NCBI GenBank assembly: GCA_050250935.1
Contig: JBFWNS010000001.1
Location: 130,102-194,101 of the forward strand
Direction of reading: 5' to 3'
Origin: Candidatus Margulisiibacteriota bacterium
GTDB taxonomy: Bacteria > Margulisbacteria > Marinamargulisbacteria > JBFWNS01
DNA length: 64,000 nt
The translations under genes were made by a program, and so were the position numbers. The notes beneath the pieces are model-generated. The model saw nothing but the letters and a program-made list of their open reading frames with translations, had not been told where the DNA came from and searched no databases. Shown here piece by piece: positions 1 to 63,484 of the stretch. Position 1 is the first letter of the stretch; every line of letters begins with the position of its first letter.

Positions 1-2721
1 TACCCATACCCCTGTTCCAAACTGGAAGGTGCCATAATTTTCAAAGGTCAGAAATGGGGAGATGCTCCCATTGCTTAGATTGGACAACTCTAACAAGCTG
101 TTTGGCGAAACTGTGCCTATCCCCACAAACCCAGCTTTAGGCTGGTTGCCGATATTTCCAGAAGGAAAATAGATGTTAGGGGTTGTAGTCTCCCAATCCC
201 AAGGCTCAACCGAGGGGCTAGTCGACAGTTCTTCTCCAGTCGGCAAAATATAGCTATCGGCCAAAATATCACCACTGACCAACTGCAAGGCCCCAGCATC
301 CGATGTTCCAGGGACTTTACCAAGCCCCACGCTTCCGAAGGAGCTGATGTACATGGCAGGTGTAGCAACCCCATATTGACCATAAACCGTCATGAGTGTG
401 GGATAAAGGTTGGATGTCGAATTATTAAAGACATACATTGAGGCGTTGCTTGCTGTTGCACCCAGGGCTACGGAGCCAGAAACAAACAATCGGGCAGAAC
501 CTGCCGTGTCTGAAGCGATACCCACGTTGCCAGAGGTTGAAATTGAAAAATGAGTTCCCCCATTTCCGACAAAACGAAGGATGGATCCTGTAGGTGTGAT
601 TCCAGCAACCGTTAAGGCCCCTGCAGAAACCGTATTGGTGCCAATCCCCACACCGCCTCGGGACCGAATGATCAACTGATTTTCAACTTTAGAATCTAAG
701 GAAGCAACCGGTTGGCTGTCCCCAAAATAGGCAGCGCCCAAATGGGTCAAAGTTGCGCCTTTTCCCAAGGCCAAACTGAAGTCGTGTTGAACCGTTTTAT
801 CTGAGCCGCCAAACGCCGTCGAATAAGCGCCCCAAACGGCGTTGCTGGTCCCCCCCATGCTTGAAGCAAAGTTACCGGTTACATAGTTATTGAATCCCCC
901 AACCACAGAATATCGAGACAAATGACTATCGTCCCAATCGGCCCCAGAAAACGCAGACGGGGTCACCAAAGTCCCAAAAACCAAGGTTGATTTTGCAGGG
1001 TAGAAGAAGAACCGCGTTCCTGGGCCCGTTACCGGTAAATTGGCAGAAACCCCATAGGTACCGCTAAATAAAACCCCCGCGTTCCCACTGATGGTTAGGT
1101 TTGCAACCGGGTTGTAAACCCCGATCCCAAAACGGTCTTGTTGGGCCACAAATAGCGGCAAGCCCTGCCCAAGTTTATCTCCTTTTTCAACTCGGAAAGA
1201 CCCATTGGACCCCGTTAAAACCCCCATGGTGTATCGCTCGAGAGTGCCCCCGCTGTAATAGCTGAAGCTGATGGCAGGATCTTGGCTGGGCCGATTGGTG
1301 ATTTGAGAAATTTGGAGCAAATTAGCAGGATCTGGACGACCGATACCCACATTTCCCAACATATAGGAGATGCTGTTTCCGGTCGGATTGAGCTGCCAGA
1401 ATGTGGCATTTGAAATAATCAATCGCAAATCTTTACCCCCTAGCGTTATCCCTTTGGCATCCAAAGTTCCGGACACCTGCAAAGTGACGTTTGGGGTGAT
1501 GGTTCCTATCCCCACATTGCCCGTAGAACCCACAAACAAGACTGAATTGGCAGAACTTGAGGCGCTGTTAAACAAGGCGGCATTGGGCCCGCCCGTAATT
1601 TCCACTCTCGAGCTGGGGACGCTGGTTCCGATTCCCATTTTTTGGGTGGTGGGATCAACATAAAACAAATTGGATGTGGTTAACAAAGAGGTGGAAACAA
1701 ATTGGGTCGGAAACGTGGTTTTGGGGAAGACGACGGTCTTAATCCCTGTTAAAGAAACCCAGCCATCGGATGTCGACACATACCCTTGGAAATCGCTTCC
1801 ATTCCACCGAATGGTACCCGCGTTGGTGGAGCTGGTGTCTCCGACACGAAGACCTCCATTGATGTCCAAGGTTTCTAAAGGAGAAAATCGACCAATCCCA
1901 ATCTTTGTGGTGCTGGTCTCTCCCCAATAAATATCTTCGGTGTTACCTGTAATGGTTTTCCAATCAAAGGCCAAATTAATCCCTGTGTTGCTAACCAAAA
2001 GGGCGGTTGCATTCACTGTCCCGACCACATCTAGGGAAAACCTTGGGGTTGCGGTTCCAATCCCAACGTTACCCCGAACATAGGAAATGTTTTGGCTGAC
2101 ATCTTGTTGCCAGGGGAAAAGGTTCTCGAAGGATTGGCCTGCAATATAAAGTCCTTGGACATTGACTTTTCCATTGACATCAAGCAATTGGTTTGGGGTT
2201 GTTTTCCAAAGACCAATGTGCGAATTATCCGGATCAACATATAAAATGTTGCGGCTCACAGTAAATAATTTGCTGACATTAACGGTTGTTGTAAAGTTCC
2301 CATAGACCGTTGCTGCATCGGCACGACCCGCCGTATCGGCCAGGTTGGTTTTGACGGCATAAGGCAAAGACGTAACGGGCATGTAAATGGTTTCGCTTGT
2401 GGGCAACGTGATGCCCAGATAGGGGTTGGTGACATCCAGATCTGTAATGACCAGCGGAGAAACTTCCCCCAACTTAACCCCAAAATTCCCGTTGGTGAAT
2501 TTAACCAATTTACTTTCGGTCCATGCGCCAGAAGGCGCCGAGTAGGTGCTGTTAGCGGTACTGAAGCTATAAAATTTAAAGGCAACCGAAATATTGCCAC
2601 TTAGGGCTTGATTGGCAGCGTTGTAGGCCGTTCCTTGGAAATCCATGGTCAAGGCCAACACCACCAGCGGTGTGGCTAGCCAAGCAAGTCCCAAAACCAT
2701 TCCCCAAACGTACTTCTTCAT
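1..2721 (-). CDS. Large secreted repeat protein, N-terminal portion only (ORF is open to the window start; C-terminus lies outside)
   Basis: Manual translation from ATG at 2721: signal-peptide-like N-terminus (MKKYVWGMVLGLAWLATPLVVLALT), then at least 10 degenerate repeats built around G-x-[VF]-G-I-G-T-x-x-P...L-x-V-x-G. No long complete ORF is listed here in any frame, consistent with one frame open to the edge. Start supported; function unknown. Confidence 0.6.
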   Translation of the reverse strand, partial: MKKYVWGMVLGLAWLATPLVVLALTMDFQGTAYNAANQALSGNISVAFKFYSFSTANSTYSAPSGAWTESKLVKFTNGNFGVKLGEVSPLVITDLDVTNPYLGITLPTSETIYMPVTSLPYAVKTNLADTAGRADAATVYGNFTTTVNVSKLFTVSRNILYVDPDNSHIGLWKTTPNQLLDVNGKVNVQGLYIAGQSFENLFPWQQDVSQNISYVRGNVGIGTATPRFSLDVVGTVNATALLVSNTGINLAFDWKTITGNTEDIYWGETSTTKIGIGRFSPLETLDINGGLRVGDTSSTNAGTIRWNGSDFQGYVSTSDGWVSLTGIKTVVFPKTTFPTQFVSTSLLTTSNLFYVDPTTQKMGIGTSVPSSRVEITGGPNAALFNSASSSANSVLFVGSTGNVGIGTITPNVTLQVSGTLDAKGITLGGKDLRLIISNATFWQLNPTGNSISYMLGNVGIGRPDPANLLQISQITNRPSQDPAISFSYYSGGTLERYTMGVLTGSNGSFRVEKGDKLGQGLPLFVAQQDRFGIGVYNPVANLTISGNAGVLFSGTYGVSANLPVTGPGTRFFFYPAKSTLVFGTLVTPSAFSGADWDDSHLSRYSVVGGFNNYVTGNFASSMGGTSNAVWGAYSTAFGGSDKTVQHDFSLALGKGATLTHLGAAYFGDSQPVASLDSKVENQLIIRSRGGVGIGTNTVSAGALTVAGITPTGSILRFVGNGGTHFSISTSGNVGIASDTAGSARLFVSGSVALGATASNASMYVFNNSTSNLYPTLMTVYGQYGVATPAMYISSFGSVGLGKVPGTSDAGALQLVSGDILADSYILPTGEELSTSPSVEPWDWETTTPNIYFPSGNIGNQPKAGFVGIGTVSPNSLLELSNLSNGSISPFLTFENYGTFQFGTGVWV

Positions 2722-2734
2722 GCCCTACCCTTCA

Positions 2735-3682
2735 TCAGAGGTTCAACGAAACAGAAAAATAGTGATTGTTGTCATATTGGATATGATCGCTTTTTTGCAT
2801 GGCATAATCGAAATTAATGCCATTGACTTCCAATCCAATACCCAAAGCAAGTCCACTTTTAACATCGGTAATCACGTTAAACTCGCGGTATCCCCCCGAA
2901 ACTTGGAAAAAGGGAACAAAGGATGGCCGATAGTTCAAGCTTGCGGCCCGTAGCATTTTGTTGCTACCCACTGTCTTTATTTGACCGTGCAATTGGAAAT
3001 CGCCCATGGTATACCTTACCGCATAAATAGCTTGAAGTGGAAGCGTTTCTGATCCCCCATTGTTGTAGTTGACCTTTAAACCGGCTATCACGTTTTTCAG
3101 GGTAATCGACGTATTAAACGCCCCGGTATCCAACACCATCCCTGCATCCATGTTGAAGCCTGACCCTGTGTATTTTTCGATGCTATTGGAGTAATAAACC
3201 CCCGAAACCCCAAAATGCAAGTTCCGGGTTTGAGAAACGGAATAGGACACTTTGGCCACCAAACTGGAGTACCCGAAGGTTTCGCCGGTTTCGGAAATAT
3301 ACCAATCGCCACTGAGGTCCCCAATGACATTGCTCTCTACACCAATGGCCTGGGTCTTTTTGAGATCGCCAACATCGACACTCATCAACCCAAGACCAAT
3401 CACCCCATAGGGCATTCTCATGCTGACGGCCACGTTTTTGAAGTTGGCTTCGTCCATTAATTTAGAGGTAAACGCAGACACCGAAAACCGACGGATGCGG
3501 TACAAAGCCGCTGGATTTTCAAACACACTATTGGCATAGGGGCTAAACCCTTCCACCTGACCCAACCGAATGGCCCGTGCCGAAGACCCGATATCGGTGA
3601 TATCCAAATAGTTTCCACCGGCCACCGCAGGGGTCGCCAGCAAAAACAATCCGAGGATCATGGCCAGGCTTTTTTGAATCAT
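2735..3682 (-). CDS. Outer-membrane beta-barrel-like protein, possibly PorP/SprF-like (T9SS-associated)
   Basis: 315-aa ORF with signal peptide (MIQKSLAMILGLFLLATPAVA), alternating hydrophobic pattern, C-terminal ...FSVSLNL, and an N-terminal FSPY...FENPA motif reminiscent of the PorP/SprF NPA motif. Family assignment is tentative. Confidence 0.5.
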   Translation of the reverse strand: MIQKSLAMILGLFLLATPAVAGGNYLDITDIGSSARAIRLGQVEGFSPYANSVFENPAALYRIRRFSVSAFTSKLMDEANFKNVAVSMRMPYGVIGLGLMSVDVGDLKKTQAIGVESNVIGDLSGDWYISETGETFGYSSLVAKVSYSVSQTRNLHFGVSGVYYSNSIEKYTGSGFNMDAGMVLDTGAFNTSITLKNVIAGLKVNYNNGGSETLPLQAIYAVRYTMGDFQLHGQIKTVGSNKMLRAASLNYRPSFVPFFQVSGGYREFNVITDVKSGLALGIGLEVNGINFDYAMQKSDHIQYDNNHYFSVSLNL

Positions 3683-4287
3683 GGGATAACCGCCATTTTA
3701 CCTTTGGACAGGACTTTTCCGCCGCTTACAAGCACATAAAAATAGACTCCCGCAGAAAGTTGATAGCCCCCAAAACTGTCCAAATCGAGGCGAACCTTGT
3801 TGTAGCCGTATTTGGCACCTTCAGACCCTGCTGCAAAAGACCCATTAAAAATTCGATTGGAGAAAATGTCGTAGATTTGCAATTGAATATCCACGTTTTT
3901 GGACAACTGATACCCAATGATGCCGCCCTTGGCTTGTTGGAAGGGGTTGGGATAAACCAGTGCAGGTCCAATAACGGCCGCTTCGACATTCGAAAAATCT
4001 TGGACACCCACGCTTGTCGAACCTGTGGGAATGGTGGACTGCAAATTGGCAAACCCCATTTTAAGGACAGACAGTTGGTTCGCATTGACCGAACGGTTGA
4101 TGTTGGTTTCTTTTGAGAGTTCTGGATTGAGGGCTTTTACAAAAGCAGTGAAGTAGTTGGCAAAATAGAAGACTTGATTGAAGGAGACTGAAGAAGTTGT
4201 ATCGTCGATTGTATCGGCCTTCGCGGGAACACCCGTTAAGGAGAGGAAAAAGGCCAGTAGCAAAATGGTAAAACGTGTCTTAAACAT
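3679..4287 (-). CDS. Secreted protein with T9SS-type C-terminal sorting domain
   Basis: 202-aa ORF with signal peptide; last ~85 aa (ALVYPNPFQQ...LQIYDIFSNRIF...GVYFYVLVSGGKVLSKGKMAVIP) match the characteristic pattern of the Por-secretion CTD. Stop overlaps the start of the downstream barrel gene by 4 nt. Confidence 0.6.
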   Translation of the reverse strand: MFKTRFTILLLAFFLSLTGVPAKADTIDDTTSSVSFNQVFYFANYFTAFVKALNPELSKETNINRSVNANQLSVLKMGFANLQSTIPTGSTSVGVQDFSNVEAAVIGPALVYPNPFQQAKGGIIGYQLSKNVDIQLQIYDIFSNRIFNGSFAAGSEGAKYGYNKVRLDLDSFGGYQLSAGVYFYVLVSGGKVLSKGKMAVIP

Positions 4288-4395
4288 GGGTCTGTTCCAA
4301 TAGTGGTTTCGATCTGTTTTGTATACTTATCGTGTGAAGGGGTTGAAAACTTGTATAAATCATTTGATGGGTGTTGAGAACATGGGTTGGTCGGA

Positions 4396-5691
4396 TTAGC
4401 GGGTCAGGACACGGGCTTCGGTATCGTAGCCCTTGCTTCCGGTAATGGTTGCGGTATAGAACTGCCCGGGTTTTAGGGATTCGGGGTTGGCAATTAACAC
4501 CACCCCATCCACATCTGGGGCTTCTCGGAACGATCTGGCGATGCCATCGCCTTCGTAAAGCACTTGGATGGTTTCATTTTTTCGGCTGGCCAACTGCGCT
4601 TGGACACTCTTTTTTTGTGCAGACATCACGCGGTTGAGTCGTTTTTGTGCGATTTCGCGGGGCACTTTGTCGCCCAAGCGCGCCGAACGGGTTTCCCGTT
4701 CTTCGGAGTAAAGGAAGGCCCCCAATTGGGTGAAGGGATACTGTTCGATAAAGGCGATAAGCTCGTCGACGTGCGCTTCGGTTTCGCCAGGGAAACCGAT
4801 GATGAGGGTGGTTCGAAAAACCAATTCGGGAATTTCTTGCTTAAAGAGGGTATAGATGCGACGCAGATCGTCTTGGGTAGAGCCACGCCCCATGGCTTTG
4901 AGCAACTCGGAATTGACATGCTGAATGGGCATGTCCAAATAGCGGCAAATGGTCGGATTGTCTTTGATGACCTTAACCAAGGCCTCATCAACCCGAGGCG
5001 GGAAAATGTACATGGCCCGAATCCATTCGACACCCTCGACTTTGGCCAGGGCCTCGAGCAAGATTGGCAAGGAGGGTTTTCCATAGAGATCTTCACCCCA
5101 ACAGGTGGTATCTTCGGCAATTAAAATGAGTTCTTTGGCCCCAAACGAGACTTGCAATTTGGCCTCGGTGATTACCTCTTCGAGGGGTTTCGAGGTGTGT
5201 TTACCTCGAATTTTGGGAATGGTGCAAAACGAACACCAGTTGTCGCACCCTTCGGAAATTTTAATGTAAGCAAAATGAGACGGAGTCAGTTTAAGGTATT
5301 GCTTGGGCACCACCGGTGTAAACCGACGTTTAAACACCATAGCCGCCAATTTTTCTTGGATGGTGCCTTCTTCGTGGGTGGTTAACCACAGATCCACCAA
5401 GGGGTATTTGGCGGTTAATTCTTCTTTTTTGAAGCGGCTGGGGTAACAACCACTGACCACCACATATTTAAGGTCTCCGGCTTCTTTTTTGGCGATTAAG
5501 GCCTCGATATTGGCCTCGGTTTCGTCGATCGCAGATTGGATAAACGAACAGGTATTCAAAATGGTGATTTGTTCGCCGCTGCCTTCTGGGGTGATGGCAA
5601 AGCCCCCCCGGCGAAGTTGGTCTATCATTTTTTCGGAATCAACTAGCGTACGGGCACAACCCAAAGAAACCAAACTGAACTGATGCGACAT
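4396..5691 (-). CDS. rimO: Ribosomal protein S12 methylthiotransferase RimO (radical-SAM MTTase)
   Basis: 431 aa; MTTase N-domain, radical-SAM CxxxCxxC (CDNWCSFC), C-terminal TRAM-like region. Confidence 0.85.
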   Translation of the reverse strand: MSHQFSLVSLGCARTLVDSEKMIDQLRRGGFAITPEGSGEQITILNTCSFIQSAIDETEANIEALIAKKEAGDLKYVVVSGCYPSRFKKEELTAKYPLVDLWLTTHEEGTIQEKLAAMVFKRRFTPVVPKQYLKLTPSHFAYIKISEGCDNWCSFCTIPKIRGKHTSKPLEEVITEAKLQVSFGAKELILIAEDTTCWGEDLYGKPSLPILLEALAKVEGVEWIRAMYIFPPRVDEALVKVIKDNPTICRYLDMPIQHVNSELLKAMGRGSTQDDLRRIYTLFKQEIPELVFRTTLIIGFPGETEAHVDELIAFIEQYPFTQLGAFLYSEERETRSARLGDKVPREIAQKRLNRVMSAQKKSVQAQLASRKNETIQVLYEGDGIARSFREAPDVDGVVLIANPESLKPGQFYTATITGSKGYDTEARVLTR

Positions 5692-32854: not shown

Positions 32855-35716
32855 CTACCGCCAATAGCGCCCTACGGTGATGTTGATTGTCTGATGGTCG
32901 GTGTCGTCGTTGAGCATGTACGAGGCGTTGCTGCCAAAGCTGAAGAGGCGGACGCCCATCATGTCGGCCCAAATATCCCCATCCATGACTTCAAAAAACT
33001 CACCTGTGCCATCGAAGGCCACATCGATTTTGTCCGTTTGACCCGAGCTGACCAAATCGTACCAAACCACCAATCGATAGCTGGAATTCCGGGACAAAAT
33101 GCTGTCGGTTTTGGTAAACGTGGGTAAGGTATAGCTGGATTGACGATTGCCGGCCAATACCGACTCCATAGATCCAAGACTGTACACCATCGACTGACTG
33201 GATGGTCCCGTCACGGGGGTTTTGGCACCGGCAGAGAAGAAATAGTCCGACCAAACACCGGCATCGGATCCACCCATTTTAAACAAGCCCACTTTCCATG
33301 TACCGGTTTGACCTACGCCAACCCGAGAACTTAGCGTCGATGGGAAGGTTACAGTCCCGTTCAACCCAATGCTCCACGGTGTGGCAGCCCCAACTTTAAA
33401 GCTGGTTCGGCTTTCAGCGCCTTGCCAAACCACACGTCCAGACGATTGCTCCACCAAGACGGGCATGATGTTGAGTTCGTAGGTGGTTTCGTAGTTGTTC
33501 CCGATATCGCGAACCGTACGGGCCAACTGCTGTTTCAACTGGAAGGAATTCCCTTGGATAAAGCGATTGTCTTGCCAAGAGCTCCAAATAAATTTCCATT
33601 TGTAGTTATCACCACTGGAATCCCAGCTTCCGGAGGGATTAAAGGTATTGTTGTTCCAATCCACTTTAATGGCCGAGAGCCCCAGGTTGATGGCATAGGC
33701 CAAGAAATAGCCATCGGGTACCGTACCAGTCGGTGTATCCCATTGCAGGTTGGGTTGGGCTTTATCCGTATCAACATCCACATCCATGGTTTGCATTTCA
33801 AACGTGTCGTCCCAGCCTGTGGCTTGTACTCTGGCCATGTCCATGCCCCGTGGGTTCCGCCAATTAATCAGGCCAATGCTGGGTTTCAAAATTCTGACCG
33901 TTGTTGATGTCAACACATTGTTGTCGGCATCCAGCACCTTAATCGTGGCCGTTCCCGAAATGTAATCCGTCACAAAGGTGGGGGTAAAGTCTCCAGAAAA
34001 ACCTGTATTTTGATAAGGCGAGATGATCCAGGTGACATCGAAAGGATTATCCAAGGCCTTTTTGGATTGAGCAGCATTAAATGCCGAAATGGCAACCAGG
34101 GATTGAGACGATCTTAACGCTTGGGGATTCCCAATCGATTGGGGGTTATTGCCAGCAGAAACGCGTTGGTATTCCACCGTTTGCGTTCCGGTCGAGGTGG
34201 GGTATTCCAAAACCACACGGGCAGCCGCTGCAGAAGCGTTTTCTGCATAAAGAACCACGCGAGAATCCAAGGCATCGGTGGGTTGCCAGTTGTTGTCCGA
34301 TACTTGTCTATAGGCCCGAACAGGAACCAAAGAGGTTTCAACAATGTAATAGCGCCCGGTTTGAATGCTTACAAAATTAATGGCCTTAAGCAATACAAAC
34401 GGATCAAAAACGGGGCCATCGTGGGTAAAAAACTCATTTCGAACCATCAGCGGCAAAGAACTTCCATCCAATAATCCTGCTTGAATCATGACGGCAATGG
34501 CCTGAGGAACCGTCATGGTTTGGCTTTCGGTAATGGGCAATGTCCACCGGTTGTTTTTGGGGAAAATAACCCGCATGGCCGGCATCGTCGTGGTATCGGA
34601 CGTCGCGGTGGCATCGTAAAAGGCGTATAACTTTCTAAGTTGTGAATTATCTTGATTCATAACCCCCAACATTTCTGCCTTAACATTAGCAACCGACCAA
34701 TAGTCCGACTTTAACTCCCCTTCTGGCAAACTCTCGTTAAACGCCTGGGCAAACTCGGCAATGGTTACCGTTACACCATTCAAATAGCCCGTTGCAAATT
34801 GCTCAATAAAAAATTCTGGTGGCACGCCAACCGAAGATCCGTCTTTGGATCCGCCACCACTTTTACCCCCAAAAATGGACCGAATAATTTGTTTGGCACG
34901 ATCTAGGGTTAAGGTCGCATTAACCTGAGAATCCAAAGCGGCTTGTTGGGCCAATTTTCGTAAATCATCGTCGTTTTGCAACTGCTCGACGATTAGTTTT
35001 TGGGTATCGTCGGGCGCAGGAAACACGTCTTTATTCACCGTAGCATCGGTGGTTGGCTTGACCGGAGACACCCGCTGAATTTCCCCAGAGCTGAGTTTTG
35101 AATTGATGGTATCGGTGATTTTTTGTGTCAATTCGTCGGACAAATCCCCGCTGAATTTATTCCCGTTTCCTTTGGCTACTTTTTCGACCACATAATCCAC
35201 AATAGCCCGGGTCTTTTCAGAGACGTTGGCCGACACGGCCGTTTCTCCGCTTTTAACGTTCACATAGGTGTCCATGCGCAACACGTTTTGGGCTCCGGAA
35301 GAATCTGTCCCTGTTTTGACAATCCCGACCACATATTTTTTACCGTCTGCTATATTTTTGAATTCGTAAGCGCCATCCACCACATTGGCTGTAATGCCCG
35401 TGGGAATAACAGTGCCATCAGATCCAATTTCATATAAAATGGCTGTCCCATCCGACAAAGTCGAAATGTCCGACAAATGTTTTGTGAAGGCTTGAGACAA
35501 CCTTTTGGACGACGACAAACTGCTAATCGAAGACACCGGATTGGTAATCCCCACCTGGCTTTGATCTTGAGCCGATGCAATGACATAGCCACTTAAGGTG
35601 GTGGCCCCCGCATAACTGGTGGTCGAGGTTGTCGACGTGGTGGATTCCGATGCTTTTCCACAGCCCCCCAAAGCCAAAATGAATATCAGCGGAACCGCTG
35701 CAAACCACGTTTTCAT
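32855..35716 (-). CDS. Large predicted lipoprotein of unknown function
   Basis: Start set at MKTWF (ATG 35716, GGAGGG RBS 7 nt upstream); lipobox LALGGC followed by Ser/Thr-rich linker; ~950 aa with no recognised catalytic motif. Confidence 0.6.
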   Translation of the reverse strand: MKTWFAAVPLIFILALGGCGKASESTTSTTSTTSYAGATTLSGYVIASAQDQSQVGITNPVSSISSLSSSKRLSQAFTKHLSDISTLSDGTAILYEIGSDGTVIPTGITANVVDGAYEFKNIADGKKYVVGIVKTGTDSSGAQNVLRMDTYVNVKSGETAVSANVSEKTRAIVDYVVEKVAKGNGNKFSGDLSDELTQKITDTINSKLSSGEIQRVSPVKPTTDATVNKDVFPAPDDTQKLIVEQLQNDDDLRKLAQQAALDSQVNATLTLDRAKQIIRSIFGGKSGGGSKDGSSVGVPPEFFIEQFATGYLNGVTVTIAEFAQAFNESLPEGELKSDYWSVANVKAEMLGVMNQDNSQLRKLYAFYDATATSDTTTMPAMRVIFPKNNRWTLPITESQTMTVPQAIAVMIQAGLLDGSSLPLMVRNEFFTHDGPVFDPFVLLKAINFVSIQTGRYYIVETSLVPVRAYRQVSDNNWQPTDALDSRVVLYAENASAAAARVVLEYPTSTGTQTVEYQRVSAGNNPQSIGNPQALRSSQSLVAISAFNAAQSKKALDNPFDVTWIISPYQNTGFSGDFTPTFVTDYISGTATIKVLDADNNVLTSTTVRILKPSIGLINWRNPRGMDMARVQATGWDDTFEMQTMDVDVDTDKAQPNLQWDTPTGTVPDGYFLAYAINLGLSAIKVDWNNNTFNPSGSWDSSGDNYKWKFIWSSWQDNRFIQGNSFQLKQQLARTVRDIGNNYETTYELNIMPVLVEQSSGRVVWQGAESRTSFKVGAATPWSIGLNGTVTFPSTLSSRVGVGQTGTWKVGLFKMGGSDAGVWSDYFFSAGAKTPVTGPSSQSMVYSLGSMESVLAGNRQSSYTLPTFTKTDSILSRNSSYRLVVWYDLVSSGQTDKIDVAFDGTGEFFEVMDGDIWADMMGVRLFSFGSNASYMLNDDTDHQTINITVGRYWR

Positions 35717-35876
35717 CTCTGTCCCTCCATTTTTGAAACTGTTTCGTTCATTATACATACTTCTTGCCCCTTTCCCAAAATTTTGAGGTTTTAAACCTGT
35801 TTTTTTAATCGAAAATTAGTTTTCTATTTGTGAAGGGGGATTCAAAAATGGTATTCTGATCCTCACTTTTACCCCT

Positions 35877-37142
35877 ATGAACAAACGGTTTTTAGTGCTT
35901 TTAGAACAAGAAATTTCCCTTTGGGTTAACCGTGGCTTTATTCAAGCTGACCAAGGCGAAACCCTTCGTCAGCACTATGCCACCCAAAGCACACCCAAAC
36001 GGGTTTGGGCCCATCCTGGCACCAGCTTGTGGCTTGCCATTGGTGGCTGTTTGGTGGGATTTGGCCTGTTGCTGCTCTTAACTTACCAATGGTCTTTGTA
36101 TCCCATTTGGGTTAAGACCCTTTTCGCCGCCCTGCTTTTGGTGGCTTCTCAAGGTTGCTTTTGGTGGACGCCAAAACCCGCTTCTTCACCGATTTTAAAA
36201 GACCTTTTTTTACTGATGTTTGGACTGGGAACCGGCCTTTCGTTTTTTCTGCTGAATGCAACCTGGCAGTTTTGGTCATACCATGGTTGGCTGGGTCTTT
36301 GGGTGGGCTTTTTGGCCTTGGGGGCTTGGGTTTCGGGCCGAAATAGCCTGACCTATTTCATGATGATTTTGTGCCAACTCTGGTTTGTTCAACATTTTTC
36401 TTGGGTTGAAGGCGGGTTGTTGTTGGCTCTGGTAGGCTGGCAACTTGTCTCGAACAACTGGTTGTCTGCAACGCCCAAAACAGGTCTTTTGCCCGCCGCT
36501 TGGCTGCTTTTTACGGCGATGGGATTGATGCAGGTCTTTAACGGCGGCCCTTTTTCGCTCTATTTTTTGGGATTGGGGCTGTTTTTTTCCCTATTGATTG
36601 TCCGCCACACCCCCAAACTCCACTGGCCCCCAGATTCGGCCATTGGGGTGAGCTTTTTGGGGTTGATGGCTCTCTGTCTTTTTGGCACTTTTAAACTGCA
36701 GTGGCCCTCTTTAATTCAATCGGTTTTGCCAACAACCGTATACTTAGGTTGGGCCAGCACCGTTTTATTAATGGGGCTTGTGGGCCTCTGGGGACTGGCC
36801 TTGTGGCAAAATAAGGCGCGACGTTCGGCTGGGCTGGGGTTTGGGGCAGGGGTTCCAGGTCTGGTTCTGCTGGCTGGGCTCTGGCGTTTGGCCCCCACCC
36901 CCGTTTGGCCCATTCAAACTGCTTTTTTGGTATTGGGTTTATTTTGGTCTGTGTGGCTGGTTCGGGAAGGCCTTTCCAGGAATCAGCTGGCGTGGATCAA
37001 TGTCGGGGGCATCTATGGGACCTTGTTGGTGGCCACCTTCTTTTTCCACCAAGCCTTCGGGGCTGGCCTCCAAGGCTTAGCGTTGCTGATTTTGGGCTCG
37101 GCTATTATCGGTCTTAATTTATATGCAAGGCGAAAATCGTGA
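35877..37142 (+). CDS. Polytopic membrane protein, DUF2157-like N-terminus fused to a multi-TM body
   Basis: 421 aa; soluble N-terminal ~45 aa then at least 10 hydrophobic helices rich in Trp/Gly/Leu; family assignment tentative. Confidence 0.5.
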   Translation: MNKRFLVLLEQEISLWVNRGFIQADQGETLRQHYATQSTPKRVWAHPGTSLWLAIGGCLVGFGLLLLLTYQWSLYPIWVKTLFAALLLVASQGCFWWTPKPASSPILKDLFLLMFGLGTGLSFFLLNATWQFWSYHGWLGLWVGFLALGAWVSGRNSLTYFMMILCQLWFVQHFSWVEGGLLLALVGWQLVSNNWLSATPKTGLLPAAWLLFTAMGLMQVFNGGPFSLYFLGLGLFFSLLIVRHTPKLHWPPDSAIGVSFLGLMALCLFGTFKLQWPSLIQSVLPTTVYLGWASTVLLMGLVGLWGLALWQNKARRSAGLGFGAGVPGLVLLAGLWRLAPTPVWPIQTAFLVLGLFWSVWLVREGLSRNQLAWINVGGIYGTLLVATFFFHQAFGAGLQGLALLILGSAIIGLNLYARRKS

Positions 37143-37723
37143 AAAAACCCAGCTTTTCAACACCCTTGATCGCCCTTGTTCTGACGCAATGGCTTGTATT
37201 CGGTGGTTTTCTGGCCAACGAAGCTTTGATTCGAGCCTTTGGCACCCATCACCTGTTTCGTTTAGAAGAAAACCCGGTTTCTTTGTATTTGCAACAAACC
37301 CGTGTTCCCCTTCCGTTTAAAGACACCACCATCACCCTCAATGCTGCCCCGTTTAAATTGGGCGATCAGGGCTATGTGTTGCTGACGAAAGACAGCTATG
37401 GCTGCGAGGTTCCCTATAGTTTTAGGCCTTCAAAACCCAAGCAAGGTTTTTGTATTCAAGGCACCATTATCGGGTTAACCCCAACGTCCATTACGGTTCG
37501 CTTGGATTTGCCCTCGTTTTTACCCGAAACCCTTCGTGCCCCTCGAACCTCTTTTTCGTCTGCATCAGCCTGGCAAAAAGAGCCCGGACTGGTTACGGTG
37601 CAAATTTGGGGGTCTCAAAGCCGGATTCGCACCCTGTTCATCCGTCGAATGCCGCTTGAAATCTTTCTTAAAACCCCGGCACCTACCCCACAATTTCAGT
37701 TTTTAAAGGAGAAAAAGTCATGA
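37139..37723 (+). CDS. Hypothetical membrane-anchored protein (possibly GDYXXLXY-like)
   Basis: 194 aa; N-terminal TM helix; GDQGYVLL motif loosely resembling GDYxxLxY; start overlaps upstream gene by 4 nt. Confidence 0.4.
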   Translation: MKKPSFSTPLIALVLTQWLVFGGFLANEALIRAFGTHHLFRLEENPVSLYLQQTRVPLPFKDTTITLNAAPFKLGDQGYVLLTKDSYGCEVPYSFRPSKPKQGFCIQGTIIGLTPTSITVRLDLPSFLPETLRAPRTSFSSASAWQKEPGLVTVQIWGSQSRIRTLFIRRMPLEIFLKTPAPTPQFQFLKEKKS

Positions 37724-39063
37724 GCACACCCACCAACAAATTCTTTGTTTTGGATACCAACGTTTTAATCCACAACCCAGCGGCCTTGTACTCGTTTAGC
37801 GAACACACGGTTGTCTTGCCCATCACGGTGATTGAAGAACTCGACAAATTCAAAACCGCTTCCGATAAAAAAGGCATGCATGCCCGGCAAGTCATGCGCG
37901 AAATTGATGGCCTGGTTCGCAAAGGGGCTTTAAAAGAAGGGGCAAAAATCAAAACGGGTGGGAAATTACGCATTGCCCTATGTCCCGAAAAAAGTGTCCT
38001 TAGTTCTTTGGATCTGTCGGTGAATGACAATAAAATTTTAAACTGTGCCCTCTCGTTTTTGGCCCCAGGCAACACTGTTTTTTTTATCTCCAAAGATTTG
38101 AATTCCAGAATCAAGGCCGAGGCACTGGGCATTGTGGCCATGGACTACGAAAAAGAAAAAGTAGAATACACCTCGTTGTACCAGGGTTGGCGCGAGATAG
38201 CTCTGCCACAGGCCAGCATTGATGCGCTGTATAAAGACCATAAACTAGAGGTTAGCAAAACCAACTATTTGGACAACGAGTATTTTTGCATTAAATCTTT
38301 GGAAAACCCCAATACCTCCTGTCTGGCCAAATTTGATGCCCCTCACAATCAACTGGTGCCCATTCGGTCCCATTTCGAAGCCATGGGCGTTAAACCCGCC
38401 AACCTCGAACAACAATTTGCCTTCGATTTATTGCTCAACGACGCGGTGGTCTTGGTCAGTTTGGTGGGACAAGCAGGCACAGGGAAAACCCTGATTGCCC
38501 TGGCCTGCGGCCTTCAACAGGTGCTGGGCAAATCCCCCAAATACGAAAAATTACTGGTGGCCAGACCCATTATGCCCATGGGCAAAGACATTGGCTATTT
38601 ACCTGGTACCAAAGACCAAAAGCTTAATTATTGGATGCAGCCTATTTTCGACAACCTGAATTTTATTATGCACAAAGACGAAACCCCAGAAGACGAACAG
38701 CCCCGTTATAAAAAGGCCGAAAAGTTCGACAAAATCGACTACCTTCTGGAATCTCAGTTGCTTGAAATCGAAGCCCTCACCTATATTCGGGGTCGCAGTA
38801 TTCCCAACCAATTTATCATTATTGATGAGGCCCAAAATCTGACCCCTCACGAAATCAAAACCATCATTTCCCGAGCCGGCAAAGGCACCAAAATTGTCCT
38901 GACTGGCGATGCCGAACAAATCGACAACCCCTATTTGGATGCCAATTCCAACGGACTCAGCTACACCGCCGAACACCTCAAAGGCCAACACATTACCGGC
39001 CACATGTTTTTGTCCAAAAGCGAGCGCTCGCCTTTGGCAACCTTGGCGGCAGAGATGTTATAG
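37720..39063 (+). CDS. PhoH2-type protein (N-terminal PIN domain fused to PhoH-like ATPase)
   Basis: PIN start FVLDTNVLIH; Walker A GQAGTGKT; Walker B FIIIDEAQN; typical PhoH2/YlaK architecture. Confidence 0.8.
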   Translation: MSTPTNKFFVLDTNVLIHNPAALYSFSEHTVVLPITVIEELDKFKTASDKKGMHARQVMREIDGLVRKGALKEGAKIKTGGKLRIALCPEKSVLSSLDLSVNDNKILNCALSFLAPGNTVFFISKDLNSRIKAEALGIVAMDYEKEKVEYTSLYQGWREIALPQASIDALYKDHKLEVSKTNYLDNEYFCIKSLENPNTSCLAKFDAPHNQLVPIRSHFEAMGVKPANLEQQFAFDLLLNDAVVLVSLVGQAGTGKTLIALACGLQQVLGKSPKYEKLLVARPIMPMGKDIGYLPGTKDQKLNYWMQPIFDNLNFIMHKDETPEDEQPRYKKAEKFDKIDYLLESQLLEIEALTYIRGRSIPNQFIIIDEAQNLTPHEIKTIISRAGKGTKIVLTGDAEQIDNPYLDANSNGLSYTAEHLKGQHITGHMFLSKSERSPLATLAAEML

Positions 39064-41091
39064 GGCGTTAAAACTCTCCATCTTTTTTCGCATTGCGTTA
39101 GTCAGTCGAAATCCTGGCATCTGCAGACCTCGTTTAAGACAATCGGACAATGCCGTTTTGACACTGGGGGGATACTTTGCCAAAGGCGCCATCGCAACCT
39201 CAAAATGCATCAAATGAAATTCCCAATATTTCCCCACAATAGCCTTAATAAAAGGAGGGGCATCGGAGACCATAACCGCATTATAAATCTCTTTTAGATG
39301 ACCTTCCAAGTGGGCTAGATAAGCCTTTTGCTCTGGGGAAAGTTGCGTTGTATTTTTTCCAAACGTGGCTTTTAAATACTCCCCTGCATCAAAGATCAAT
39401 TGATGGACACAAAACAACAGACGATTAAAGAGTTCCTCAAGATACTGATAGGCCGTTTGAATCTGCACCTCTCTATCGGATGTGGGTTGTTCAGCACCCC
39501 ATTGTTTAAACTGATCCGAAACCATTGAAAAAGCCCGCTTTAAAGCAACTTTATAGGCCATCGTAAGATCCGGCACGAGGATTTGTTGGGAACCAACCTT
39601 ATACGAACGGTATTCATAGGCCACATTTTGGGTCCCATAAAGTGCAAAACACAGGGTCTTTAAACTAACGTTTGGGGATTGACTTAACCGATCCAAATAT
39701 CGTTCTGGACAAAAATCTCTGAGGGTTGTTGCCAAAGTTGCAAAAACACCTGCATAGACATACTCAAAACGTTGCCCAATTTCTGGAGGCAAGGAAACCA
39801 GTTCAGGTTCCCTTTGGTAGCAAGCTATAACCCGTACCCATCGACCCTGAGGTGTTTCTTGGACTGCCACAACCGCGCGATTGGTATAATCGCTGATACT
39901 ATTTCCCCGTTGATCGGTTTCTTCCACCCCAAATTTGGTTCGACCTGCAGATTGCATATGGTTTCTGGTAAGCGCAGGATTACGGGGGTGGCTTCGTTCC
40001 ACAAATTTTACATTCGACTGACAACTATCCTGGGGTTTTACCACCACAGTTGGACAGGCAAACTCCTGACCGGGGACCAAAAATTTGGAATCAGGGTTGG
40101 GAAAACCAGGAAAGTATCGTTTCGCTTCTACCCCATTGAAACACTGGGCCAAAACCGGGACATTGGGATACAGCATATGGGCAGGATCAAATTCTACAGG
40201 GTTCACGCCATAACGGGTCTGTGCCAACAGTAACCGTTGCATCCCTTTAGGCCACTGATATCCAAAAACCCGAACATCGCCATCTTCTGTGGCTCTAGGA
40301 GATGCAGTATAAACATACTCGAATCTGGGCGTCGTTGACTTGGGTAGCTGTTGCCGAAAATCAGTCTGGGTTGGGAAAAGGGCCCGAAACGATTCAGAAG
40401 TCGTACGCCTTGGGAGAGGCGCAGAAGTTGTCAGGCGGTGTTGGGGGTCCACCGATGGGGCCAGGCTTGCCAAAATACCCTCGTGGGCTCCAAAACGAAG
40501 TAAAGATTCTCCCAGATCTTGAACTTCACAGATCAATGGCCTTCCAGCTTGATCTTTATAATCAACCACCATCACAACCGTATCCCCAACCTGCCATGGC
40601 ACGGGCACAAAATCGGCATCCACCATGGCTTCTGGCCTTCGAGATCTCTCGATAAACGCCTGCAAAACGCTACTTTTCGCCAGATTGTCCGGATGAATCT
40701 CAAACCGAGATCCATCTCGCAGGGCTTGCAAAGGGTCAGCCCCTGCCCGAAGTAAGGCATCTTCGTAGTTAGAGCCTCGACACCCATACAGCACCTCATG
40801 TAAGGGTGTATGCCCTGCTTGATCTGATTGAAGATGAAACAAGGGCGTTCCATAGTATCGCTTTAACAGCAACACCAATTTCTGAAACCGTTCAGGGGCC
40901 AATCGTTCTCGTATGGCCTGAATCAGTAATAACAGTGGATTTAGTCTGGATTGTAGCGTTCTTAATACGAGATTAAGATCGCGGGGATTTTGGCTGTCTC
41001 GAGTCGCCTGTACCAATGCTAATTGGAATACCGTCAAAGCATCGGGTCCGCCTACTGCAGGTTGAATCGAGACATATTTGTAAACACCCAT
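39058..41091 (-). CDS. Hypothetical 677-aa protein with at least one ankyrin-repeat-like motif
   Basis: AGHTPLHEVLYGCRGSNYEDALLRAGADP matches the ankyrin consensus; no signal peptide; local composition looks more AT-rich than the flanking housekeeping genes; 3' end overlaps PhoH2 by 6 nt in convergent orientation. Confidence 0.5.
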   Translation of the reverse strand: MGVYKYVSIQPAVGGPDALTVFQLALVQATRDSQNPRDLNLVLRTLQSRLNPLLLLIQAIRERLAPERFQKLVLLLKRYYGTPLFHLQSDQAGHTPLHEVLYGCRGSNYEDALLRAGADPLQALRDGSRFEIHPDNLAKSSVLQAFIERSRRPEAMVDADFVPVPWQVGDTVVMVVDYKDQAGRPLICEVQDLGESLLRFGAHEGILASLAPSVDPQHRLTTSAPLPRRTTSESFRALFPTQTDFRQQLPKSTTPRFEYVYTASPRATEDGDVRVFGYQWPKGMQRLLLAQTRYGVNPVEFDPAHMLYPNVPVLAQCFNGVEAKRYFPGFPNPDSKFLVPGQEFACPTVVVKPQDSCQSNVKFVERSHPRNPALTRNHMQSAGRTKFGVEETDQRGNSISDYTNRAVVAVQETPQGRWVRVIACYQREPELVSLPPEIGQRFEYVYAGVFATLATTLRDFCPERYLDRLSQSPNVSLKTLCFALYGTQNVAYEYRSYKVGSQQILVPDLTMAYKVALKRAFSMVSDQFKQWGAEQPTSDREVQIQTAYQYLEELFNRLLFCVHQLIFDAGEYLKATFGKNTTQLSPEQKAYLAHLEGHLKEIYNAVMVSDAPPFIKAIVGKYWEFHLMHFEVAMAPLAKYPPSVKTALSDCLKRGLQMPGFRLTNAMRKKMESFNAL

Positions 41092-47968: not shown

Positions 47969-48223
47969 TTACCGATAGACATCTTTTCGATGTCTTACAC
48001 GCAATACAGTAATTGTGGCTTCCTCAACGGTATAAACCAACCTGTAATCGCCTTCTCGAAGGCGGTAGGTATGCAGAGAACCGCTGAGTTTTTTACTGTC
48101 CGTTGGGAAAGGGTTATCGATTAATTCTAAAAGACGCTTATCAAATCGCCTCAGCATCAAAGCAGGCAACTCTTCAAGCTCTTTTTGGGCCTTTTTGCTA
48201 ATAAAAAGACTAAATTTTTCCAT
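47969..48223 (-). CDS. Type II toxin, RelE/ParE family
   Basis: C-terminal YRLREGDYRLVY...VLRVRHRKDVYR is a classic RelE/ParE signature; start set at MEKFSL (ATG 48223, AAGG upstream), overlapping the antitoxin stop. Confidence 0.75.
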   Translation of the reverse strand: MEKFSLFISKKAQKELEELPALMLRRFDKRLLELIDNPFPTDSKKLSGSLHTYRLREGDYRLVYTVEEATITVLRVRHRKDVYR

Positions 48224-48419
48224 GCGCCTTAAGCTGTTCTCGAAATTTGTCGTAAGAGATTTTCTCATCCTCTCTACGCTCTGCAACAACAGCCAAGTCT
48301 TCTAAATCCTCCATGAGGGTTTCATAGCTTTCAATGGGCAACACCACAAAGGCCCGATTACCATCGGCATCCAATACAAACTGGGGGGCTGTTTTAGACG
48401 ACTCTTTTTTCTTTTTCAT
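48210..48419 (-). CDS. Type II antitoxin, Phd/YefM-like
   Basis: 69 aa; FVVLPIESYETLMEDLEDLAVVAERRED pattern; immediately upstream of and overlapping the toxin. Confidence 0.65.
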   Translation of the reverse strand: MKKKKESSKTAPQFVLDADGNRAFVVLPIESYETLMEDLEDLAVVAERREDEKISYDKFREQLKAHGKI

Positions 48420-61792: not shown

Positions 61793-63484
61793 TTATTCTT
61801 TTACCCCATCCATCATTTTTTTCACAGGGGGGGTTTTGGACAAGAGGGCCAAAAACTCGGCCCGGGTAATGGGGGTTTTGGGGTTAAACACAGGACCAGG
61901 CGCAATAAGACCGGCATTGAGTGCGGCTTGTAAATAGGGTCTAGACCAATGGTGACGGGGAACATCTCGGTAGGGTAAGCGAATTTTTGGAGCATCGGGA
62001 AGGGGAAGGCCCAACCATTTCACCACAGCGGCAACCGCTTCTGCTCGGGCAACCGGTAAAACGGCTTCCCACTCTTGAAGGGGTTGCAAGGGCACTGGAC
62101 CCGTTTGGGTATATTGCCCCAAAGCCTGCATCCACGCCATTAAATCGCGCTTTAACACCAGCGATTTGGGCTCGAAGTGTGCTTGATCGGGAACAATGCC
62201 CACACCACGGAACAATACCGCCACCGATTCGACCCAGTGTCCTTTCATATCCTCGAAAGGAACCAGCCGGACTACGTTGACAGTAACAACCCCACCCTCT
62301 GCTGCCAGCCAAAGGGTGTTGGGGCCTGTTTCAAGCGGGACTGAAGTGGTTAGCTGAGCGTTAAACGTCGCCACCCAAGCACCCAAAGACGCCGTCCCCT
62401 GGCTTCCTTTTGGAACCCGAAAGGTCACGGAAACGGTTGGGGATAGGGTATAGGCAGGGGCTTCGATTCGGCTTCCTTTTTTTGAGGGGGCTAGGGCGGC
62501 AACATAGGCAAAGGCTGCTTCGTTAACCGATGCTACCGAATCCGTTGGCAATATCATTAAGGGCTTGGCCAGGGCCACAAAGGTCGGTTGCTTGGACAGA
62601 GCCAACACCAGATCCGCAACGGTGATGGTGTCGGTAGGGGCCTTCATGGCCGATTCAGAAATGACCCCTTGCTTGTAGGCCCAGACCATCAGACGCTGAT
62701 ACCAAGCCCCACTTGCTTTTGGCAAAGACTGCTGGTCTGGGGGGGCTTTTCGCCACAGGGCTATGACCATATCCAACCGTGTCGCGGGTTGTTTTTCTCC
62801 AAAATCTCCTTGGGTATTGTTCCCCATCCACCCCTGTTTTTGAACGTAGCGCACAGCATCTTTGGGGTCTGGGCGATGACGGTTATCTGGCACATTTTCC
62901 AATTGATAAAACGCATAGGCCAACATTTCTCGGGTAATGGGCGTGGTCAGATCGGTTACCCCAGGATGAAACAGCGGCAATTTAAGCAAAGCAATAAGGG
63001 CATCTCGGTTCGCCGTTGGGTAGGCCGCAATGGACAATCCCGGAACCAACTGGTACACCCGAAGCACGGTGTGCCACAACCGGTTTTCACCAACGACTGC
63101 ACTCACCCAAATGGTGTTCATGCCCGGCGCTGACAAGGGCATATCCAGCACAAACCGTCCGTCGTTTCGAACCGATACGGATTGATTATTCACAAAAACA
63201 GGTCGCACAAACGGGTTGGTTCCTTTTAATAAGAAAGTAGGTTTGGTCGTTAAAAAAACGGTAGAGGGACTGTGCAGCAAAATCCCCTCTTGGGTTGTCG
63301 TGGTCCGGGGTTTCGCTGCTTCAGGTTGAACCAAAATAGGGACTTCGACGGCCTCGGCTTCAGCCTCTGTGGCCACCTGAACCTCTTGCTGGGGCGGACG
63401 TTGACCAAAGGCCATCACCAAGGGATGCCCGCCAACAAGTCCCAGTCCAACCAACATCGCTATTAGCAATTTTTTGTGTCTCAA
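61793..63484 (-). CDS. Secreted protein with SLH (S-layer homology)-like modules
   Basis: Signal peptide; C-terminal YRDVPRHHWSRPYLQAALNAGLIAPGPVFNPKTPITRAEFLALL matches the SLH pattern; weaker SLH-like segments internally. Confidence 0.6.
   Translation of the reverse strand: MRHKKLLIAMLVGLGLVGGHPLVMAFGQRPPQQEVQVATEAEAEAVEVPILVQPEAAKPRTTTTQEGILLHSPSTVFLTTKPTFLLKGTNPFVRPVFVNNQSVSVRNDGRFVLDMPLSAPGMNTIWVSAVVGENRLWHTVLRVYQLVPGLSIAAYPTANRDALIALLKLPLFHPGVTDLTTPITREMLAYAFYQLENVPDNRHRPDPKDAVRYVQKQGWMGNNTQGDFGEKQPATRLDMVIALWRKAPPDQQSLPKASGAWYQRLMVWAYKQGVISESAMKAPTDTITVADLVLALSKQPTFVALAKPLMILPTDSVASVNEAAFAYVAALAPSKKGSRIEAPAYTLSPTVSVTFRVPKGSQGTASLGAWVATFNAQLTTSVPLETGPNTLWLAAEGGVVTVNVVRLVPFEDMKGHWVESVAVLFRGVGIVPDQAHFEPKSLVLKRDLMAWMQALGQYTQTGPVPLQPLQEWEAVLPVARAEAVAAVVKWLGLPLPDAPKIRLPYRDVPRHHWSRPYLQAALNAGLIAPGPVFNPKTPITRAEFLALLSKTPPVKKMMDGVKE

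Follow-up and report, generated by a model that had tools for sequence, protein, structure and literature searches.

A conserved cassette of a small type A sorting-domain-like protein, a PorV/PorQ-superfamily barrel and a giant tail-fibre-like protein in Margulisbacteria: a candidate surface anchor

Analysis of a 64-kb stretch of DNA (64,000 nucleotides; hereafter the window) from contig JBFWNS010000001.1 of a Candidatus Margulisiibacteriota bacterium revealed a cassette of three genes at its left end, all on the minus strand and in the same direction. An open reading frame (ORF) scan of the window placed a gene for a small protein of 202 amino acids (aa) at 3679..4287, a gene for a 315-aa beta-barrel protein at 2735..3682 and a giant gene at 1..2721, of which codons 1-907 lie inside the window (start ATG at 2721, open at the left edge). 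The stop of the small gene and the start of the barrel gene overlap by 4 nt (ATGA) and 13 nt lie between the barrel stop and the ATG of the giant gene, which confirms the three co-directional genes with overlapping or near-overlapping borders described in the initial annotation. Each of the three proteins starts with 20-25 residues that were read from the sequence as a Sec-type signal peptide. A matching 68.9-kb Logan contig that extends past the window contains the whole giant ORF, which encodes 2965 aa there (L001:10962-19859) and is followed by an Rrf2 regulator gene. Comparison with related loci revealed that the barrel and the small protein, which carries a domain of the kind that serves as sorting signal in a type IX secretion system (T9SS), form the conserved core of the cassette, and that a fibre with a constant N-terminal domain is their usual third partner.

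In the small protein, a signal peptide (residues 1-24) precedes a segment with poor conservation and predicted disorder (about residues 25-100), and a sorting-type domain forms the C-terminus. This last part, an immunoglobulin (Ig)-like domain resembling the T9SS type A C-terminal domain (CTD), spans residues 105-202 (window 3682..3975, minus strand). Assignment of the gene as 'CTD-only' is based on the ORF, the match to the model TIGR04183, the AlphaFold2 (AF2) model and the orthologues adjoining the barrel gene. The TIGR04183 match covers residues 111-198 with 25.5 bits against a cut-off of 23 (E 9.5e-6), and 13 of 14 small-protein orthologues match the same model (best E 3.8e-7); the NCBI PGAP name of the protein is 'T9SS type A sorting domain-containing protein'. 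These results bear out the earlier statement that the 202-aa protein ends in a T9SS-type sorting domain. Weak matches to CHU_C were found in seven of the 14 orthologues (best E 0.0033). In the AF2 model the domain is a seven-strand Ig-like sandwich at the extreme C-terminus, with a predicted local distance difference test (pLDDT) score above 90 at residues 105-202 and below 50 at residues 25-38 and 58-91, and PorU, PorZ and the mirolase CTD were among its best fold matches. Three motifs are invariant across the 14 orthologues: P113-N114-P115, G180-x-Y182-F183 and G196-K197. We take PNP, GxYF and GK to be the type A CTD motifs B, D and E, including the C-terminal lysine. An AlphaFold model suggested contacts of motifs B, D and E with PorV at its extracellular loops (PMC10202324). 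The N-terminal segment of the small protein has a conserved L-x-V-L-x-V-G-F motif. Overall, the small protein amounts to little more than a type A CTD on a flexible tether. A profile of the small-protein family searched against the Protein Data Bank (PDB) gave a TonB receptor as sole match, which was judged to be chance.

The barrel protein matched the NCBIfam model PorV_fam (NF033709) with E 5.4e-17 and 62.4 bits against a cut-off of 90, PorQ (NF033711) with 37.7 against 220 and PorV2 (NF033710) with 23.1 against 325. Because these scores miss the curated cut-offs, the barrel is a relative within the PorV/PorQ superfamily and not a member by NCBI criteria. Among 40 members of the barrel family, 35 match PorV_fam and PorQ and one matches PorV proper. 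Fold comparison gave a FadL-fold barrel of about 14 strands, structurally closest to PorV; no fatty-acid-transporter family was returned for it by Pfam or NCBIfam, and besides PorV/PorQ only a weak TraF_2 match was obtained. The barrel had been described as PorP/SprF-like on account of an NPA motif. Of this description the motif stands, being real and invariant among the 40 sequences, and the family has to be changed to the PorV/PorQ superfamily: PF11751 (PorP/SprF) gave no match to the barrel at E<=1, TIGR03519 gave none for the 315-aa protein and is matched by one of the 40 family members (E 7.3e-5), by which a PorP/SprF identity is ruled out. The NPA motif (residues 56-58, window 3509-3517) lies in a conserved N-terminal 'hatch' segment, residues 30-62, DIGSSARAIRLGQVEGFSPYANSVFENPAALYR (window 3497..3595, minus strand), and G32, A35, G45, N56, P57 and A58 are the invariant residues of the 40 sequences. 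An NPA hatch motif is a hallmark of the FadL family (PMC8407342), and the motif and its position suggest that the conserved segment probably occupies the barrel lumen as a FadL-type hatch. An exhaustive profile search with the barrel family yielded 2538 representatives at E<=1e-3, of which 280 reach E<=1e-30. Few of the close relatives carry a name, and those that do are called Margulisiibacteriota or just 'bacterium'. Searching PDB chains with sequences of the barrel family was uninformative.

Two further features were observed within the barrel family. The barrels P0123, P0157 and P0195 carry Pro/Glu/Lys-rich low-complexity C-terminal extensions of 100-170 aa past the last strand, which may be periplasmic spacers or cell-wall tethers. 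In a subclade (P0007-P0012), about 43 conserved aa (…LDASGNIREEV…) are inserted between the positions of window-protein residues 206 and 207 (alignment columns ~213-255), and strand counting makes the insertion appear to be an extracellular loop.

The giant protein begins with a signal peptide (residues 1-25), followed by a conserved N-terminal domain at residues 27-215 (window 2077..2643, minus strand), which was delimited in an alignment of 15 fibres and has a core at about residues 27-135 with the motif P-x-T-S-x-P-Y-A. This domain of about 110-190 aa is the only part common to all cassette fibres, and a hidden Markov model (HMM) built from it matches every one of them, including the otherwise unrelated fibre of the distant locus L023 (E 4e-15). 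Across the window and all loci, its sole other match is an extra ORF beside the L015 fibre. This short ORF (L015:19036-19836; 267 aa from stop to stop) lies directly 3' of a 2705-aa fibre gene and matches the HMM with E 2.7e-10; it may encode a second small substrate of the same anchor, or be a fragment. The shaft of the window's fibre is rich in Gly, Ser and Thr and carries repeats of the VGIGT-x-P-xx-L-x-V type at irregular spacing, about 25 by a loose pattern and about 15 with the fuller VGIG-type consensus, in agreement with the giant repeat protein first described; PHROG tail-fibre families match the repeat units.

The C-terminus of the giant protein, which lies outside the window, had been proposed as a place to look for a CTD. 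None is present: no CTD family of Pfam or NCBIfam matched the complete 2965-aa protein at E<=1, and a CTD is ruled out at this end, which is occupied by a putative Peptidase_G2-type chaperone and a tail. The last 190 residues start with DYAEYLP. As a single sequence the fibre matches PF11962 (Peptidase_G2) just below the cut-off (22.5 bits against 25, E 8.8e-5), and PF11962 is present in C-terminal homologues at 33-42% identity. A profile of 21 C-terminal sequences, several of them carrying PF11962, matched two chaperones: the phi29 gp12 autochaperone 3gqh (E 1.9e-5), in which residue 1 of the released form aligns with DYAEYLP, and that of the Dpo31 tailspike (E 1.4e-4); the repeat region of the profile matched the Bdellovibrio mosaic adhesive trimeric (MAT) fibre Bd2133 (8ond; E 7.8e-6). 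A phmmer search of the whole giant protein against the PDB gave no match. Since DYAEYLP aligns with the start of the released gp12 chaperone, self-cleavage is predicted at A2775|D2776. The fibre end after the chaperone was read by eye as a coiled coil. Among the complete fibres of other loci, that of L016 has the same putative G2-type chaperone as the window's own locus (L001), those of L014 and L015 have other C-termini and that of L023 has a shaft of ISGLG repeats. The family thus has the layout of tail fibres and MAT-type fibres (a signal peptide and a conserved N-terminal domain, then a repetitive shaft, with tips that are interchangeable), and on these sequence characters we classify the giant protein as a mosaic tail-fibre-like, Bdellovibrio MAT-like fibre.

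A total of 18 loci were compared, comprising 16 tabulated loci (the window's own locus, three metagenome contigs and 12 genome assemblies, from Margulisbacteria and Marinamargulisbacteria) and the two distant loci L022 and L023. The order small gene, barrel gene, giant gene is kept in 15 of the 16 tabulated loci, with different flanking genes, so chance does not account for the arrangement. The trio is present in 16 of all 18 loci and its order is changed once, in the still more distant L023 (NCBI GCA_964349635.1, L023:6112-10821), which has barrel, small and fibre genes in that order. The L023 fibre is 1080 aa long with a run of N inside, and the stored gene calls missed its gene, listing a 532-aa ORF on the opposite strand instead. 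Adjacency of the small and barrel genes is found in 17 of the 18 loci, usually with a stop/start overlap, down to about 30% barrel identity. This tight pairing is ancient. HMMs built from the family's own CTD and barrel, by which divergent CTDs could be missed, detected one of each per locus and no second copy in the window or in the loci searched. Such single copies are more in keeping with a dedicated pair than with a general secretion signal. Across Margulisbacteria lineages the cassette has been conserved vertically. The assemblies of L015 and L017 are labelled 'uncultured Rickettsiales' and 'Actinomycetota', and all other named loci are Margulisbacteria; the two labels may reflect mis-binning or misclassification.

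The window is otherwise made up of housekeeping genes, among them lpxB, lpxC, a SurA-like gene and a TonB-receptor plug. The presence of lpxB and lpxC together with the SurA-like chaperone and the TonB-receptor plug indicates a host with a lipopolysaccharide (LPS)-containing outer membrane. Identical counterparts of the 315-aa and 202-aa proteins exist in an NCBI metagenome-assembled genome under the name Candidatus Margulisiibacteriota bacterium.

Based on these results, we propose that the barrel and the CTD protein act as a stand-alone pair, with the small protein as adaptor, that anchors the fibre through the fibre's N-terminal domain; we put the chances of this interpretation at about even. 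Under this proposal the 315-aa PorV/PorQ-family barrel would sit in the LPS-containing outer membrane, and the 202-aa protein, essentially a type A CTD that would be retained and is flexibly tethered at its N-terminus, would form a stable complex with it. The precedent comes from the T9SS, where the CTD of PorZ is retained and binds PorQ and that of PorU binds PorV (PMC5562754, PMC10202324); by analogy the CTD of the small protein would bind the barrel as the PorZ CTD binds PorQ and the CTDs of PorU and PorA bind PorV. Barrel and small protein would then jointly dock the conserved N-terminal domain of the fibre. The fibre itself would be exported by Sec, is probably trimeric and would be exposed at the surface, its folding in this genome helped by the C-terminal intramolecular chaperone of the phi29-gp12/Peptidase_G2 type, which would cleave itself off at the predicted site, and its variable distal tip would be projected for adhesion. 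A constant N-terminus combined with variable shafts and tips is the pattern expected if the N-terminus contacts constant partners.

Several observations weigh against this proposal. The case for a joint function of the three proteins is made from synteny and analogy, and both the small CTD protein and a fibre of about 300 kDa would have to cross the outer membrane without SprA/Sov. The search with CTD models suggested in the initial annotation gave a divided outcome for the small protein, which passes TIGR04183 (25.5 against 23) and falls below the cut-off of PF18962 (17.1 against 27); weak PF18962 matches were found in 12 of the 14 orthologues. The fold match is not specific to CTDs, since generic Ig and FN3 domains score similarly in fold comparison. 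Two loci also lack an adjacent fibre gene. Marinamargulisbacteria single amplified genome AG-905-D08 (L018:9941-10909) has the barrel only, with no adjacent CTD-like or fibre gene, and the more distant L022 (JGI 3300041032, L022:9450-10924) has small and barrel genes that overlap by 4 nt, the small protein being 184 aa long and CTD-like with E 2e-32, and no fibre gene within 10 kb. Absence of an adjacent fibre gene in L018 and L022 implies either that anchoring of fibres is not the only role of the pair or that the fibre gene lies elsewhere. The neighbours of the L018 barrel gene are housekeeping genes on the opposite strand, in a genome that looks AT-rich and reduced, and the L022 contig also has the flagellar genes fliF and fliG.

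The same genes could instead belong to an ordinary T9SS accessory or cargo locus, with a full, perhaps divergent T9SS encoded elsewhere in the genome, the small protein as a cargo or PorA-like regulator, the barrel as PorV/PorQ and the giant gene merely co-transcribed. The CTD does pass the TIGR04183 cut-off, PorV/PorQ are the best sequence and fold matches of the barrel, and the DNA inspected amounts to only about 71 kb of the genome (the window and about 7 kb of adjoining contig). No T9SS core family was among the Pfam matches for the genes of this DNA, so the earlier statement that the window has no core T9SS gene holds, and no T9SS Pfam family was found among the annotated genes of the related loci. 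Furthermore, the barrel scores far below the curated PorV and PorQ cut-offs, and the HMM of the family's own CTD, which could miss divergent ones, detected a single CTD at each locus searched, in every case next to the barrel. The literature confines the T9SS and its CTDs to Bacteroidota/FCB (Fibrobacteres-Chlorobi-Bacteroidetes) (PMC10202324), a group to which the Margulisiibacteriota host does not belong, the distribution of CTDs tracks that of T9SS core genes (PMC10202324, PMC5445135, PMC12398890), and our literature search found no paper linking Margulisbacteria to the T9SS. We consider an ordinary T9SS locus unlikely. We assign the same low probability to a role of the barrel as the export route of the fibre, in the manner of two-partner or inverse-autotransporter systems, the unfolded fibre being threaded through the barrel or passing alongside it, with the small Ig protein serving in the periplasm as chaperone or plug and folding outside driven by the C-terminal chaperone. 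Such a role would suit a fibre that has a Sec signal peptide and no recognisable outer-membrane translocation domain of its own, as well as the translational coupling of the three genes, and some small CTD proteins are known to cross the outer membrane without SprA (PMC7712824). Against it, the barrel is of the FadL/PorV type with about 14 strands and a lumen that, judged from the motif and its position, is probably filled by the NPA segment; it has no POTRA or Omp85 features; and in L018 and L022 it occurs without an adjacent fibre gene. To our knowledge, no FadL- or PorV-family protein translocates polypeptides.

The FadL fold would also suit a channel for hydrophobic compounds whose neighbours are functionally unrelated or only loosely related to it. 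That a CTD-like gene strictly accompanies the barrel gene, often with overlap, in 17 of the 18 loci and across a change of gene order is hard to explain on these terms, and the sequence HMMs favour PorV/PorQ, as the family searches above show; we regard the channel as improbable. The giant gene, lastly, could be the remnant of a prophage tail fibre and the cassette a phage-derived cargo, given that PHROG tail-fibre families match the repeats and that the C-terminal chaperone appears to be of the phi29 gp12/tailspike type. The fibre nevertheless carries a Sec signal peptide, the cassette is vertically conserved across Margulisbacteria lineages and cellular fibres of such a kind are known in the MAT family of Bdellovibrio (PMC10769870). 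At no annotated locus were phage genes found within about 10 kb, the flanks being housekeeping genes that differ between loci; on the basis of these neighbourhoods a prophage origin was rejected, and we consider it very improbable.

The individual parts of the cassette are of known kinds, namely a type A CTD, a PorV/PorQ-superfamily barrel and a tail-fibre-like fibre with a putative self-cleaving chaperone. Not previously described are that they combine into a conserved operon, that the CTD is placed on a minimal protein of its own and that they occur in Margulisbacteria. Sorting domains of the T9SS and barrels of the PorV family count as hallmarks of Bacteroidota/FCB, found only with the T9SS core (PMC10202324). 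We tentatively suggest, as a possibility on the doubtful side, that in Margulisbacteria, a phylum related to Cyanobacteria, the barrel and CTD pair works as a minimal system of surface attachment, independent of the T9SS. It would be an autonomous 'plug and socket' outside the FCB group, from which the T9SS attachment complex could have descended or which could be an offshoot of that complex gained by horizontal transfer, and it could also be the long-sought type of anchor for the N-terminal domain conserved in mosaic trimeric (MAT-like) fibres. If the anchor interpretation is correct, the CTD-barrel interaction can act as an independent anchoring device, which bears on the evolution of the T9SS attachment complex and on the translocon-independent delivery of small CTD proteins such as PorA to the surface (PMC7712824). 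The pair would then also be a candidate cell-surface receptor for the constant N-terminal domain of mosaic tail-fibre-like adhesins (PMC10769870). With lengths from 1,000 to more than 4,000 aa, the fibres are probably among the main structures on the surface of these uncultured bacteria, which include symbionts, and likely mediate attachment to hosts, prey or particles. Structures resembling fimbriae are known from 'Ruthmannia eludens' (PMC6784892).

Upstream of the cassette, a gap of 108 nt (4288..4395, minus strand) separates it from a co-directional RimO/MiaB-type radical-SAM gene at 4396-5691. The promoter presumably lies in this gap; scanning for promoters 5' of the cassette gave no sigma-70 consensus. 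The gene 5' of the cassette differs at other loci, and the cassette is therefore an independent unit.

Elsewhere in the window, the SLH-domain protein noted at first inspection was found at 61793-63484 (minus strand; PF00395, E 3.7e-10). It is a secreted protein of 563 aa with a single C-terminal SLH domain and a weak Glucodextran_B-like match, and could be a link between the cell wall and either the outer membrane or a surface layer. Two further minus-strand genes have no Pfam match, one at 32855-35758 for a predicted lipoprotein of 967 aa (…LALGGCGKAS…) with a Ser/Thr-rich start and one at 39058-41091 for a 677-aa protein without signal peptide. Pfam annotation of the matching contig identified a RelB-like/ParE toxin-antitoxin pair just downstream of lpxC (window ~47969-48419, minus strand; L021:2673-3123). 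A strong local AT skew (-0.23), unlike the rest of the window, extends over 36001-38000 and covers a DUF2157 membrane-protein gene and its neighbour.

Among the closest known systems are the PorQ-PorZ and PorV-PorU sub-complexes of the T9SS attachment complex of Porphyromonas gingivalis, in which a PorV/PorQ-family barrel is likewise paired with a type A CTD protein and the CTD is retained as an anchor. Unlike these pairs, the two genes of the cassette are adjacent, translationally coupled and linked to a giant fibre gene. Its CTD protein lacks an enzymatic or carbohydrate-binding body and has a disordered segment of about 80 aa only, the barrel scores below the curated family cut-offs, and in the Margulisbacteria host no T9SS translocon was detected in the vicinity. 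The small protein also resembles PorA (PGN_0123), the partner of PorV, and Fjoh_0547 in its make-up, with a short N-terminal part after the signal peptide and then a CTD. PorA (246 aa), a small CTD protein that binds PorV, does not need the translocon to arrive at the surface, and secretion of Fjoh_0547 (112 aa) persists in sprA and porV mutants (PMC7712824). However, PorA is confined to Porphyromonas, acts in signalling and has an N-terminal domain that is folded and FimH-like, whereas the N-terminus of the Margulisbacteria protein is disordered, and outside the CTD the two proteins show no sequence relationship.

For the fibre, a close cellular counterpart in layout is the MAT fibre family of Bdellovibrio bacteriovorus, with its shared signal peptide, conserved beta-rich N-terminal domain, GxVGIGT-type repeats and interchangeable tips. 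The constant N-terminal domain of MAT fibres is thought to bind a surface element whose identity is unknown (PMC10769870). Some MAT members have a self-cleaving C-terminal chaperone, as is predicted for some cassette fibres. The cassette fibres are three to four times longer, their chaperone appears to be of the Peptidase_G2/phi29 gp12 type and not of the S74 type, and MAT genes are not reported beside a barrel and CTD pair. The C-terminus of the fibre aligns with the phi29 gp12 pre-neck appendage and tailspike chaperones (PF11962) from D-Y/F-A-E-Y onwards. In contrast to gp12, which is a virion protein, the cassette fibre is a cellular protein exported by Sec, and its self-cleavage is a prediction.

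The likeness to adhesin-plus-PorP/SprF cassettes of gliding bacteria, which had been drawn at the outset, holds in part. Genes of type B cargo cluster with cognate PorP/SprF barrels, which are proposed to be their anchors (PMC5562754, PMC10202324). As in the sprB-sprF loci of Flavobacterium johnsoniae, the Margulisbacteria cassette is conserved and places the gene of a giant surface protein beside a dedicated T9SS-family barrel, in sprB-sprF the proposed anchor (PMC10202324). SprB, however, is a giant adhesin with a type B CTD of its own, while in the cassette the barrel is of the PorV/PorQ type and not PorP/SprF, the giant protein has no CTD and a type A-like CTD is carried by a separate protein.

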